DNA of 64,000 bases. Source: Candidatus Latescibacterota bacterium. GTDB taxonomy: Bacteria; Latescibacterota; UBA2968; UBA8231. The notes below the pieces were generated by a model. That model was not told the origin of the DNA and did not search any database. It saw nothing but the letters and a program-made list of their open reading frames with translations. The position numbers and the translations under genes were made by a program. Of this stretch, positions 28,221 to 34,094 are shown in pieces. Each line of letters opens with the position of its first letter. The first letter of the stretch is position 1. Where the stretch lies: positions 992,001 through 1,056,000 of the forward strand of contig OZ241867.1 of assembly GCA_965203175.1 (NCBI GenBank). Direction: 5' to 3'.

Positions 28221-28538
28221 TTAGCGTAGCAGCCGCTCGCTAAACAGCGTCCGCGCTAGAGCGCGCACATCCCGCTCACCAGCCAAATGAGTCTGCCCCA
28301 CCGACACCAACACCACCTCGACCTCCCCAAGCCCCACCCGATAGACGATGCGGAACCACCCTCCCGGCGGGCGCAGACAGCGATAGTCCTTTAGCTCGCC
28401 GACCAAGGGCCAGCCCTGTTCTTCAGGATCGATTGCCAACCCTGTGATGTATTGGTCCACTTGCTCGGCGATCCGCCGGTTGAGCAGGCCTTGCCGCGCC
28501 TCTAAAGCGCGCGGCGCCAAGACGACGCGCAACGTCAT
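28221..28538 (-). CDS. RelE/ParE family toxin
   Basis: LAIDPEEQGWPLVGELKDYRCLR...FRIVYRV; ATGA-coupled to the upstream antitoxin. Confidence 0.8.
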   Translation of the reverse strand: MTLRVVLAPRALEARQGLLNRRIAEQVDQYITGLAIDPEEQGWPLVGELKDYRCLRPPGGWFRIVYRVGLGEVEVVLVSVGQTHLAGERDVRALARTLFSERLLR

Positions 28539-28792
28539 TGCCCCTCCCAAACAGCGCGCTCGCCCGCCTCAATCTGGCGGATGCCTTCGCGCAGCGCAGC
28601 GCACTCGGCCTCGTCGCCGAGCACCTCTAACGTTTCGACAATACCCTGGTAAAGCGACCACGGCATCAGCGCGAGCACCGGCTGGCCGCGGCGCGTTACG
28701 GCGAAGGCACTTGCTTCGGGTTCGGCGGCGAAGCGATCGGGCAATTGATTCAGGACTTTGCGGGCTTCGGCGATGGGTATGGATTGGAGCAT
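28535..28792 (-). CDS. Phd/YefM family antitoxin
   Basis: IPIAEARKVL, VTRRGQPVLALM, YQGIVETLEVL; RBS GAGG. Confidence 0.85.
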   Translation of the reverse strand: MLQSIPIAEARKVLNQLPDRFAAEPEASAFAVTRRGQPVLALMPWSLYQGIVETLEVLGDEAECAALREGIRQIEAGERAVWEGQ

Positions 28793-28804
28793 ATTTTCCT
28801 CTTT

Positions 28805-28835
28805 TGTACCGTATATAGTACTAAATTGAGTACTT
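28805..28835. promoter_or_regulatory. Probable antitoxin operator: three GTAC palindromic cores at 12-bp spacing
   Basis: GTAC at 28806, 28818 and 28830 immediately upstream of the antitoxin start. Confidence 0.6.
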
Positions 28836-30001: not shown

Positions 30002-30996
30002 TCCAACTCGCGCACCCATACTTATTGTTCCTCGGCGACGCCGCCGACCAGCTAGCCGCCAAAACGGCCGTTGGCGTCGCCCAGTGGCGGCCCGAACACT
30101 GCATTGGTCAGCTCCGCCTTCCCGACTGCCACGCCGACCTCGGACTGCCCGACCAAACCCTCGCCGAAGCCCGCGCCGCTGGTGCCCGCACCCTCATCAT
30201 TGGCGTCGCCAATCGCGGCGGCACCATCTCCGACCTCTGGCGCGAGACCTTCCTGCAGGCCATCGACCTCGGCTACGATCTCGCCAGTGGCCTGCACACG
30301 CGCCTTGGCACCATCCCCGGCTTGGCCGACCGCGCCCGCGCAAAGGGCACTCGCCTCGTAGATGCGCGCTTTTCCGACCGCGCTTTTCCCATTGCAACCG
30401 GCGTCAAACGCCCGGGCAAACGCCTGCTCACCGTCGGCACCGACTGCTCGGTCGGCAAGATGTTCACCGCGCTGGCCATTGAGCGCGAGATGCAGGCGCG
30501 AGGCATGGCCTGCACCTTCCGCGCCACCGGCCAAACCGGCATCTTCATCGCTGGGACCGGTGTTGCCGTTGACGCCGTAGTCTCCGACTTCCTCGCTGGC
30601 TCCGTCGAGGTCCTGACCCCGGCCAACCACCCCGAACACTGGGACCTAGTCGAAGGCCAAGGTTCGCTGTTCCACGCCTCCTACGCCGGCGTGTCGCTGG
30701 GCCTCATGCACGGTGCCCAACCCGACGCGCTCGTCCTCTGCCACGATCCCAACCGGCCCCACATGCGCGGCCTACCCGAATACCAACTGCCCGATCTGCT
30801 CGACTGCATTCGCCTCAACGAGCAGTGCGGCCGGCTCACCAACCCGGCCTGCCGCACCGTTGGCATTGCAGTCAACACCTCGCACTTGCCGGAAGACCGC
30901 GCCGCCGAACTGCTCGAAACCATTGAACGCCAAGCCGGCCTGCCCGCAGTCGATCCGCTGCGCCAAGGGGCCGCGCGCTTGGTCGATGCCCTGTGA
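29998..30996 (+). CDS. dgcN: DUF1611 family protein, D-glutamate N-acetyltransferase DgcN-like
   Basis: PYLLFLGDA..AAKTA.G, VGTDCSVGKMFT, RATGQTGI, EGQGSLFH; adjacent to an enolase-family epimerase. Confidence 0.85.
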   Translation: MIQLAHPYLLFLGDAADQLAAKTAVGVAQWRPEHCIGQLRLPDCHADLGLPDQTLAEARAAGARTLIIGVANRGGTISDLWRETFLQAIDLGYDLASGLHTRLGTIPGLADRARAKGTRLVDARFSDRAFPIATGVKRPGKRLLTVGTDCSVGKMFTALAIEREMQARGMACTFRATGQTGIFIAGTGVAVDAVVSDFLAGSVEVLTPANHPEHWDLVEGQGSLFHASYAGVSLGLMHGAQPDALVLCHDPNRPHMRGLPEYQLPDLLDCIRLNEQCGRLTNPACRTVGIAVNTSHLPEDRAAELLETIERQAGLPAVDPLRQGAARLVDAL

Positions 30997-32048
30997 CCCA
31001 CTTCTCCGTCCGCAGCGAGAGCTTCCCTCTCGCCCAGACCTTCACCATCTCGCGCGGAGCCAAAACCACCGCCGATGTCGTCGTCGTCGAACTGAACCGC
31101 GACGGCTGCGTTGGCCGCGGCGAGTGCGTCCCTTACCCCCGCTACAACGAAAGCGTGGCCGGAACCATAGACGCGCTAGAATCGCTGCGCCCACAGGTAG
31201 AAGCCGGCCTCGACGGCTCGACGACTCGACTGAGCGGTTCGGCTGAGCTCACCGTCGAAGCCTCGCCGAAGTCTGAGCTCGCCGAAGTCCGAGCGGCATT
31301 GCAACGCACTCTGCCGCCCGGTGCCGCCCGCAACGCCTTGGACTGCGCCCTGTGGGATCTAGAAGCTAAAATCAGCGACCGCCCTGCCTATGAACTGGCC
31401 GGATTAGCAACACCGCGTCCAATATCGACGGCCTACACCCTCTCGCTCGACGATCCAGAAACCATGGGCCGAGCCGCTGCCCAGCACGCCGACCGCCCGC
31501 TGCTCAAGATCAAACTCGCCGGTCGCGACGATCTCGACCGCGTCGCCGCAATCCGCGCCAATGCCCCAGACTCGACCCTGATCGTCGATGCCAACGAAGG
31601 CTGGTCCGCCGACCAAGTCGAACCGCTCTCAACCGCCCTAGCTCGTTTGGGCGTCGCGCTCATCGAACAACCCCTGCCCGCCGACCAAGACGCCCTGCTC
31701 GCCGAGTTGGAACACCCGGTCCCCTTCTGCGCCGACGAATCCTGCCACACTGCCGCCGATCTCGCGGAACTAGCCGCCCGCTACGAATGCGTCAACCTCA
31801 AGCTCGACAAGACCGGCGGCTTCAGCGAGGGCCTGCGCTTGGCCGCCGAGGCGCGCGCGTGCGGATTGGACTTGATGGTCGGCTGCATGATCGCCACCTC
31901 GCTGGCTATGGCGCCGGCTGTCCTGCTGGCGCAACAAGCCCGCTTCGTCGATCTCGACGGCCCCCTGCTCCTGCAAAAAGATCGGGAACGCGGGCTGCGC
32001 TACGAAGGCAGCCTCCTCCATCCGCCCCATCCTCAACTCTGGGGATAG
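30993..32048 (+). CDS. dgcA: N-acetyl-D-Glu racemase DgcA / L-Ala-D/L-Glu epimerase (enolase superfamily) carrying a 25-aa insertion
   Basis: FTISRG, GRGECVPY, KIKL, VDANEGW, EQP, ADES, KLDKTGG, DLDGP. Confidence 0.88.
   Translation: MTHFSVRSESFPLAQTFTISRGAKTTADVVVVELNRDGCVGRGECVPYPRYNESVAGTIDALESLRPQVEAGLDGSTTRLSGSAELTVEASPKSELAEVRAALQRTLPPGAARNALDCALWDLEAKISDRPAYELAGLATPRPISTAYTLSLDDPETMGRAAAQHADRPLLKIKLAGRDDLDRVAAIRANAPDSTLIVDANEGWSADQVEPLSTALARLGVALIEQPLPADQDALLAELEHPVPFCADESCHTAADLAELAARYECVNLKLDKTGGFSEGLRLAAEARACGLDLMVGCMIATSLAMAPAVLLAQQARFVDLDGPLLLQKDRERGLRYEGSLLHPPHPQLWG
31215..31289 (+). mobile_element. Triple nested insertion of a short palindromic (REP-like) element within dgcA
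   Basis: GGCTCGAC[GACTCGACTGAGC[GGTTCGGCTGAGCTCACCGTCGAAGCC]TCGCCGAAGTC]TGAGCTCGCCGAAGTC = 24+24+27 bp. Confidence 0.75.
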
Positions 32049-32154
32049 GGGACTCGCGCGTCGGCAAACCTTGCTGGACGCAGGTGGCGATTGAGTGTAT
32101 TCTTCCCCAAGAATCTATAGCACGATTCGAGCTGCGGATCGTCTTGTTCTACCC

Positions 32155-32184
32155 TTCTGCGTCTATCTGCGTCCATCTGCGGAT
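32155..32184. repeat. Intergenic 10-bp periodic repeat (ATCTGCGTCY)n
   Basis: TTCTGCGTCT-ATCTGCGTCC-ATCTGCGGAT between dgcA and the C39 gene. Confidence 0.55.
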
Positions 32185-32212
32185 CACCTTGCAAATCATG
32201 TAGGAATGCTAT

Positions 32213-33215: not shown

Positions 33216-34079
33216 ATGGACAAAGCGAACTTCACTTCCATCGTCTTCGGCGAAATCCTCTACGACTGCTTCCCCGACCGCACCTGCCTGGGAGGTGCTT
33301 CCCTGAACTTCGCTTGGAATCTGCGCCAGCTCGGCTTTCCCGTGGCCATGGTCAGCGCCGTGGGGCGAGACGAACTAGGGCAACAGGCGCGGGGCTTTCT
33401 CCGGCGCGCCGACATTGATCAGCAATGGGTCGCCGATCGGCCCGAGCCTACGGGCACGGTCGATGTATTGCTCGACGATGGCCAGCCTTCCTACACCATC
33501 CGCGCTGGCGTGGCTTGGGACTATATCGAAACTAAGCCGGCGTTAGACCAGCCCCCCGACTTGATCTACTACGGCACGGCCGCGCAACGCAGTCCGGCCA
33601 ATCGTCCGGGACTGGAACACTTGCTGGCCACCAACCCCCGGCATCGGCTTTTCGACGTCAACCTGCGCAAGGACTGCTATACGCCGCAAACCTTGCTCTT
33701 TGGCCTCGAAGCGGCGACTATTGTCAAGCTCAACGACGAGGAATGGGAGGCCGTACGGGACATCGCCGAGGTCGCCGCACCCGCCGACTTAATCGCCCGC
33801 TACGCGCTGGATTGCCTAGCGATTACCTTTGGCGGCGACGGCGCTCAACTCCACATTCCAGGGGCTTCGTTCGCCGCCCGGCCTGTGCCCGCGTCCGTCG
33901 TCGATGCGGTCGGGGCTGGCGATGCCTTTAGCGGGGTTCTGGCCGCCAGCGCTCTGCTCGGCACCGACCCGCAACAAGCCCTAGACTTAGCGTGCGACGC
34001 CGGTGCCAGCGCGGTGCAGCACCCGGGTGCCCATTGTCCGCTGCCTGAATCCGTGAAGGCGGCGTTTGCGTTCGACTGA
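33216..34079 (+). CDS. PfkB family carbohydrate kinase (fructokinase-like)
   Basis: FGEILYD, GGASLN, FDVNLR, KLNDEE, DAVGAGDAF. Confidence 0.9.
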   Translation: MDKANFTSIVFGEILYDCFPDRTCLGGASLNFAWNLRQLGFPVAMVSAVGRDELGQQARGFLRRADIDQQWVADRPEPTGTVDVLLDDGQPSYTIRAGVAWDYIETKPALDQPPDLIYYGTAAQRSPANRPGLEHLLATNPRHRLFDVNLRKDCYTPQTLLFGLEAATIVKLNDEEWEAVRDIAEVAAPADLIARYALDCLAITFGGDGAQLHIPGASFAARPVPASVVDAVGAGDAFSGVLAASALLGTDPQQALDLACDAGASAVQHPGAHCPLPESVKAAFAFD

Positions 34080-34094
34080 GCTCACGCCGAAGTC
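34070..34094 (+). repeat. Single copy of the same palindromic element, supplying the stop codon of the PfkB gene
   Basis: GTTCGACTGAGCTCACGCCGAAGTC; removing it restores TTT GCT TAA. Confidence 0.7.

Follow-up and report, generated by a model that had tools for sequence, protein, structure and literature searches.

The dgcA gene in the 64,000-nucleotide window analyzed here (G000:C1:992001-1056000, with G000 denoting the source genome, a Candidatus Latescibacterota bacterium) carries a segment of 75 base pairs (bp) that is almost certainly the work of a mobile, serially nesting element. The segment (31215-31289) lies in the dgcA reading frame and encodes GSTTRLSGSAELTVEASPKSELAEV. As the original prediction for this stretch had proposed, it resolves into three nested units of 24, 24, and 27 bp, all of triplet length. 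The 24- and 48-bp alleles of related genomes confirm this parse, and the nesting is not a product of chance. The prediction also spoke of one element present three times; the units do belong to one family, but two subtypes of it occur in dgcA (two alpha units and one gamma unit). The features are as follows (lengths in nucleotides, nt, or amino acids, aa; dN/dS, ratio of nonsynonymous to synonymous substitution rates):

30993-32048, + strand: dgcA, N-acetyl-D-Glu racemase family, enolase superfamily; 351 aa, i.e., 326 plus 25 inserted (orthologs 326, 334, 342, or 350 aa; dN/dS 0.09-0.16).
31215-31222, + strand: outer alpha unit (24 nt), 5' part; the first insertion, 3' of the C at 31214; a single intact 24-bp insert in G003, G010, G012, and G021.
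31223-31235, + strand: middle alpha unit (24 nt), 5' part; entered the outer unit at CTCGAC^TGAGC; seen whole within the outer unit where the allele is 48 bp long (G006, G020, and G022).
31236-31262, + strand: inner gamma unit (27 nt); entered the middle unit at GAGC^TC, probably as the last insertion; identical solo copy at G000:C1:1090149; the alpha-plus-gamma nest recurs at other loci.
31263-31273, + strand: middle alpha unit, 3' part, from allele comparison.
31274-31289, + strand: outer alpha unit, 3' part; codes for ELAEV, a predicted extension of the following helix (helix 95-106 of the AlphaFold2 model).

The identity of the host gene is indicated by a match of its product to the NCBIfam DgcA model NF042940 (470 bits; cut-off 400), and dgcN lies upstream. 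Close DgcA homologs bear the NCBI label Gemmatimonadota, and a sequencing run labeled as sponge metagenome covers the gene. The 75-bp segment is real and not an assembly artifact, because overlapping contig pieces from two studies (X1 and X3) tile the allele and nine of the 14 other listed members of the DgcA protein cluster carry the 25-aa insert. Two further runs show the empty joint. The inner 27-mer has its identical solo copy 67 kb away in the same genome.

The order of events can be read from an allelic series across the genus. Of 24 ortholog loci (from congeners and G000 itself), 21 were parsed and three divergent ones were left unparsed. Thirteen of the parsed loci are empty, four have the outer unit only (+24), three have the outer and middle units (+48), and one, G000, has all three (+75); protein lengths of 326, 334, 342, and 350-351 aa agree with these states. 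Alignment of the orthologs, a check put forward along with the original prediction, gives a clean gap at the insert, with the +24 and +48 intermediates just described and no equivalent loop in the 13 empty alleles. Judging from their protein sequences, P0021 and P0030 have a reversed inner unit and P0002 has a different triple nest. In a tree of the flanking 2.8 kb, all eight filled alleles fall into one group (support 85/98) that also includes the empty allele of G014, and the three 48-bp carriers do not form a group of their own. We considered precise excision in G014, which is disfavored: the empty allele has the CAAG flank of empty lineages. Recombination is the likelier event there because the right flank matches those lineages. 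An RNA-library contig carries the identical triple nest in another gene, at a site that has one unit in G000 and two in G020; RNA-library contigs, at their small share, do not amount to a demonstration that the 75-bp dgcA allele is expressed. No circle-type joints occur in the contigs examined, and contigs would drop such rare forms.

Could local slippage duplication have generated the series instead of a mobile element? Two tandem duplications, one of 8 bp and one of 16 bp, would describe the 48-bp allele, but nothing nearby could have served as template for the first 24 bp or for the 27-mer, both of which match copies scattered elsewhere. Also to be accounted for are 77 independent empty sites (see below), reverse-oriented nested copies, and sequence identity across phyla. 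We regard slippage as extremely improbable, and as refuted by dispersed identical copies with clean empty sites.

The units share the family core TCGRCTGAGCTC-N0-3-GYCGAAG, and all of them fit a C to the left of the junction followed by N1-3 TCG[AG]CTGAGCTC N0-3 G[CT]CGAAG NC, with an imperfect dyad around GAGCTC. The subtypes are alpha (24 nt), beta (24 or 25 nt), gamma (27 nt), and delta (25 nt). G000 holds 19 units at 14 sites, with five units nested and 13 sites in predicted genes (coding and intergenic calls in G000 come from our own gene model). When genomes were scanned with the pattern that the original prediction had offered, there were 10 matches in G000 and further copies in congeners (1-43 matches in 16 of 24 congeners, and matches in one of 16 more distant relatives), compared with none for the reversed control. 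The richest complete genomes have 41 (G010), 31 (G012), and 24 (G022) copies. There is no Rfam match for the family at E ≤ 1. In our literature searches we found no description of its sequence, the core 15-mer included; the figures and supplements of PMC3733652 and PMC11893778 may list related consensus repeats.

Movement of the family is evident from empty and filled sites. We aligned to G000 a total of 129 congener loci, picked around pattern matches. Among 167 clean congener-side insertions, 73 are of exactly 24 bp, 11 of 48 bp, and seven of 51 bp. The search for empty sites in sister genomes, another of the proposed checks, yielded 77 distinct sites that are empty in G000 and filled in relatives. 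Nesting is serial, because at seven of these 77 sites single and nested lengths occur in different genomes. Thus, the idea of an active unit of about 25 bp that enters copies of itself and lengthens the protein in frame survives in large part: Polymorphism among species points to recent mobility, but the single unit is replaced by a family of 24-27-nt subtypes.

A further member of the family lies in the window, downstream from dgcA:

34070-34094, + strand: delta unit, 25 nt, at the last codon of a PfkB-family kinase gene (33216-34079), whose stop codon is the unit's TGA.

The kinase site is empty in G002, where the gene reads through to its original stop, and the unit is also absent from G010, G012, G013, and G022. 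In these four genomes the kinase stop is followed instead by another palindromic repeat, one that ends in CCCCTAC. The delta 25-mer persists because the stop codon of the kinase gene comes from it. Elsewhere, on viral and metagenome contigs (L464, L545, and L486), delta units are recursively nested at least four deep. A 993-aa gene of G000 (G000:C1:1089804-1092782, - strand) has three separate in-frame units, two of them at the equivalent spot of two domains, which from their motifs we take to be receiver-like. All 14 sites of G000 fall within 2.16 Mb (G000:C1:555845-2710170) around the likely origin (post hoc p about 6e-4), with DnaA boxes near 1.237 Mb and the terminus near 4.5 Mb; congener copies are found all around the chromosome. 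Two other features of the window may be mentioned. Between dgcA and the next gene (32145-32190) is a short tandem-like repeat, TCTGCGTCTATCTGCGTCCATCTGCGGAT, which resembles repeats known beside GxxExxY genes, and at 28221-28818 (- strand) is a small two-gene pair, presumably a module resembling RelE/Phd-type toxin-antitoxin systems.

An AlphaFold2 model of DgcA (57-row alignment; mean predicted local distance difference test score 91) leaves residues 76-92 disordered, and a disordered loop is the predicted form of the insert; in the model the last five inserted residues lengthen the next helix. The modeled protein keeps the enolase-superfamily fold (template modeling score 0.96, target-normalized, to 4gfi) and retains the invariant columns K172, K174, D199, E225, D248, K270, and D320. 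With the insert excluded, dN/dS against ten congeners is 0.09-0.16, similar to the value for the single empty-allele pair compared (0.07); the gene remains under purifying selection. The series of 0, 8, 16, and 25 extra residues, together with the reversed-inner alleles, amounts to a natural experiment in which selfish DNA adds loops to a conserved enzyme.

The family is not confined to the genus. In the genome collection, at least 121 stretches contain an exact copy of alpha, and the 80 titled alpha records span about 14 phylum-level groups (including Planctomycetota, Chloroflexota, Desulfobacterota, Nitrospirota, Verrucomicrobiota, and Acidobacteriota); the phylum labels are the titles of metagenome-assembled genomes, so binning errors may contribute to this spread. 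Viral contigs supply 17 stretches with alpha and 17 with other subtypes, and at least 120 metagenome stretches carry the family. An even draw of 300 genomes from one phylum contains 14 carriers. By our own gene model, 90 of 121 cross-phylum loci are intergenic, as against the 13 of 14 coding sites in G000.

The target rule is simple and nearly absolute. Of 122 cross-phylum copies of alpha, 121 have a C immediately to the left, a position outside the search pattern, and 103 have a purine before that base. Insertion after a C was anticipated from the window; the accompanying claim that there is no target duplication is less secure, because C is the last base of the unit as well as of the left flank, so that a 23- or 26-nt unit with a 1-bp duplication of C fits equally well. 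Within the genus, triplet-length inserts are located in gene bodies (62), gene ends (12), and intergenic DNA (three), and inserts of other lengths in gene ends (two) and intergenic DNA (five), with none in a gene body. The written strand coincides with the C-rich strand at 47 of 61 nonnested alpha and beta sites (expected 0.57, p=8e-4). The expectation for this test was both motif-aware and frame-aware (stop avoidance), local GC skew served as a proxy for fork direction, and loci with skew <0.03, nested copies, and the gamma and delta subtypes were left out.

Each unit had been described as an imperfect hairpin. The imperfect dyad is present, but it is weak: the inner 27-mer folds as DNA at -2.8 and -2.6 kcal/mol and a 26-nt stretch containing most of a 24-mer at -2.3 kcal/mol, no better than shuffles, and the stem positions have no significant covariation. 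On these folding and covariation results, a strong intrinsic hairpin of the units is not supported. Units do enter other hairpins. Outside the genus, 31 of 92 inferred empty sites are at hairpin tips, compared with 188 of 2034 nearby C positions, with a peak within 3 nt of the loop. Empty sites also lie inside CTGAGC-N-CGAA-type repeats for delta (37/90 vs. 22/1800), alpha (16/115 vs. 10/2300), and the 27-mers (7/31 vs. 7/620). The hairpin tests did not include four same-genus loci, and sites nested in the family were analyzed separately. Part of the enrichment may come from selection for neutral intergenic sites. Self-nesting is one instance of a wider preference, for hairpin tips and for CTGAGC-N-CGAAG repeats.

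What moves the units is a harder question. Our working choice, which we hold at somewhat less than even confidence, is that the 75 bp represent three serial insertions of a nonautonomous 24-27-nt family that is moved in trans on single-stranded DNA (ssDNA) by a standalone, Ssn-like hairpin nuclease of the GIY-YIG type with the help of host repair. The unit would be a minimal two-armed derivative of the CTGAGC-N-CGAAG repeats that flank GIY-YIG genes. A transiently present nuclease would nick ssDNA where hairpins are extruded or at the replication fork, and the nick would take up a single-stranded copy of the unit through one shared C. Copies would land in copies by virtue of the recognized core within each unit, and selection would leave in genes only triplet lengths, at tolerant loops.

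Several lines of evidence point in this direction. The CTGAGC-N-CGAAG core is present within 1.5 kb of seven of the 18 GIY-YIG loci examined in the class (including the single such gene of G000), and near seven of 17 strong matches to the G000 GIY-YIG protein in carrier genomes, but near none of 12 UvrC loci. Units are found inside repeat arrays beside GIY-YIG genes in G290, in G121 (its only copy), and at L499, and one sits in the loop of an NTS-type repeat at L445. Ssn enzymes cut only ssDNA, strand-specifically, near hairpin repeats (Chenal et al. 2025, PMC11893778), and their gene-plus-repeat layout has been likened to an insertion sequence, with movement not demonstrated (PMC11893778).

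Some individual GIY-YIG loci merit description. At L499:1400-1890, a gamma unit lies in a repeat right after a tRNA-like gene, 116 bp before a standalone GIY-YIG gene. In G000 itself, a standalone GIY-YIG gene of about 100 aa follows two inverted-repeat pairs of the form GTCATTCTGAGC...CGAAGAATC (L161, G000:C1:3165847-3166191), a type with 19 repeats in this genome. The locus is variable, with other inserts in G002, G010, and G012, about 100 bp in G021, and a 3' remnant in G022. At L156 (site G000:C1:441852) there is another type of 24-bp in-frame insertion, GCGGTGCGCTGAGCTTGTCGAAGC, with the GIY-YIG-repeat core unchanged; it is possible that this type links the GIY-YIG repeats with the 24-27-nt family.

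A considerable number of observations weigh against a GIY-YIG mobilizer. No intact standalone GIY-YIG gene was found in G010, G012, or G022, only UvrC (and, in G022, the 3' remnant), and just 17 carrier genomes of the 50 have a relative of the G000 protein (a strong match in 10). In the one-phylum draw, 11 of 14 carriers have a GIY-YIG gene, compared with 83 of 286 noncarriers, but this co-occurrence is not specific, because control families behave alike: in one and the same subset, GIY-YIG is present in 11/14 carriers vs. 15/50 noncarriers, GxxExxY in 11/14 vs. 21/50, and Y1 in 12/14 vs. 22/50 (the co-occurrence counts are hand tallies over related, nonindependent genomes). A GIY-YIG gene lies within 1.5 kb of none of 80 alpha loci and two of 80 metagenome loci, and a looser form of the core pattern is found near seven of 28 Y1 loci too (mostly weak matches). 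The published SRM pattern (5' HGTC tag plus palindrome) matches neither strand of the dgcA segment. The cut made by SsnA lies upstream of the repeat and not in the loop, and joining activity has not been demonstrated (PMC11893778). Units also enter unrelated repeats, and their adjacency to GIY-YIG genes may only reflect targeting of the repeats there. Finally, no hairpin excess was found at nonnested coding sites in the genus (0/34 alpha, 2/50 beta). Hairpin targeting is not supported for such sites, and most insertions in the genus lie in ordinary coding sequence that has no hairpin; a hairpin is thus preferred and not required.

Nor did the surroundings of the cross-phylum copies single out a candidate. 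Clustering of the open reading frames (ORFs) near them gave no recurring mobilizer gene, and a Pfam search of 108 of 162 small adjoining ORFs gave no GIY-YIG and no Y1, only one Uma2 and one DDE fragment. This result bears as well on the mobilizer that the original prediction gave as an example, a RAYT/HUH nuclease. By that account, an HUH Y1 transposase (RAYT or IS200/IS605 TnpA), working in trans, would cut the unit out of ssDNA and reinsert it 3' of a C. The lack of duplication, the C before both junctions, the replication-linked strand bias, and the bulged imperfect stem all speak for it, being traits that fit IS200/IS605 behavior; copies also sit in the loops of GTAG-type repeats (L181, L212, and L275), and Y1 genes are enriched in carriers (12/14 vs. 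22/50, as above). IS608 uses an ssDNA route (PMC3116915). However, there is no Y1 match in five element-rich genomes (G010, G012, G022, G003, and G014) or among the 108 neighboring ORFs, and thus no RAYT or TnpA-Y1 gene flanked by the motif among them. The units have no GTAG tag, no exact family copy lies near the two Y1 genes of G000, and the fixed target is merely C or RC. The strand with the 5' C is the C-rich one, which appears to be opposite to what lagging-template insertion predicts. A resident RAYT/HUH mobilizer is thus not supported, and we consider this account unlikely.

Perhaps no dedicated enzyme is needed. Template switching by the host polymerase, or the illegitimate capture of short single-stranded pieces into nicks at forks or hairpin tips with 1-2 bases of microhomology, would suit the richest genomes, which are without a candidate GIY-YIG or Y1 enzyme, and would suit the junction ambiguity of 1-3 bases at most sites, the wide range of host hairpins, and the strand bias. 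We nonetheless doubt this explanation to about the same degree as the Y1 transposase. At about 100 events the ends of the unit are exact to the base, hardly any copy breaks the C rule, and 16 congeners carry the family whereas eight do not. Moreover, the sequence keeps every letter from one phylum to the next, which suggests recognition by a protein.

An RNA intermediate is less probable still. A reverse transcriptase would switch from the 3' end of a nicked DNA, ending in C, to a small RNA version of the unit and then return, in agreement with the one-base C overlap at the junction, with the orientation of alpha in genes (20 sense vs. 10 antisense, where about 43% sense is expected), and with the better folding of some variants as RNA (to -12.8 kcal/mol). 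But beta has little sense bias (22 vs. 15), and peptide tolerance can itself yield a sense bias; there is, again, no Rfam match, and no single strand keeps both variable stem pairs.

Given that the GIY-YIG evidence is mixed and that Y1/RAYT fares no better, we retain nicking by a nuclease followed by host repair as the tentative choice. A bolder version is speculative, and we lean against it: the 24-nt unit might be a hyperparasite, stripped to the GIY-YIG repeat core, that hijacks Ssn-type nucleases so as to copy itself into the tips of hairpins, in other selfish repeats as well as in its own copies, has passed unchanged through more than 12 phyla, and in its triplet forms recursively builds new protein loops. 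If this were true, the units would be among the smallest mobile DNAs, and Ssn nucleases would gain a role in transposition without a transposase.

How does the family compare with known systems? Among the closest are the small dispersed repeats (SDRs) of Nostoc (Elhai et al. 2008), reportedly 21-27 nt long, in some cases in frame in genes, and with a mobilizer that is said to be unknown. Like them, the units described here (24, 25, and 27 nt, with 77 empty sites) are very small mobile repeats with precise insertion. As far as the published descriptions allow comparison, they differ in targeting C or RC, other hairpin repeats, and themselves, and in spanning many phyla, whereas SDR5, which inserts at a fixed position of a palindrome (PMC4390886), targets HIP1, and SDRs are reported only in Nostocaceae among HIP1-rich cyanobacteria (PMC5861425). 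No cyanobacterial title is among the 80 listed alpha records.

The NTS/SRM repeats of Ssn systems (PMC11893778) are likewise short, orientation-specific palindromes; the CTGAGC-N-CGAAG core is common to the units and the GIY-YIG-flanking repeats, and units insert there. In contrast, the units lack the 5' GTC tag, are mostly intragenic in the genus (2% for NTS), and are usually far from the nuclease gene, and only cutting, not transposition, is reported for Ssn, whose role outside Neisseria is stated as unknown (PMC11893778). Rickettsia palindromic elements (RPEs) also enter working genes in frame and add a peptide (PMC10969869; PMC3733652), as do the 62 triplet inserts in gene bodies found here, but RPEs are about 150 bp long and RPE-4/6 are CGTC-tagged, unlike the untagged, recursively nested units of 24-27 nt. 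The GTAG and CGTC REPs, and REPINs with RAYT, are palindromes of 20-40 bp, some of them intragenic, stop-supplying, or inside other palindromes (PMC3733652; PMC3116915). Here the unit ends, as defined by empty alleles, have no GTAG or CGTC tag, it is the single unit, rather than a doublet, that is polymorphic, and no RAYT is flanked; CTGAGC is absent from the main text of PMC3733652, a statement that covers neither its consensus figures nor its supplements. GTAG REPs and REPINs are mostly extragenic, a trait on which the present family is divided between G000 (13 of 14 sites coding) and the cross-phylum loci (90 of 121 called intergenic). A miniature inverted-repeat transposable element would have terminal inverted repeats of 15-30 bp and a target-site duplication, whereas the whole unit is 24-27 nt and only the shared C (CC for most beta copies) can be read as a duplication.

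The movement of repeats shorter than 30 nt is an open question (SDRs, RPEs, and those CGTC repeats that have no known transposase), for which this family offers ends known to the base, a rule for the target, dozens of sites in both empty and filled form, naturally occurring intermediates, and named candidate enzymes. It is a real, well-delimited cross-phylum family of mini-elements that works like SDRs, RPEs, and intragenic REPs but differs from each of them in tag, size, target, or partner gene.
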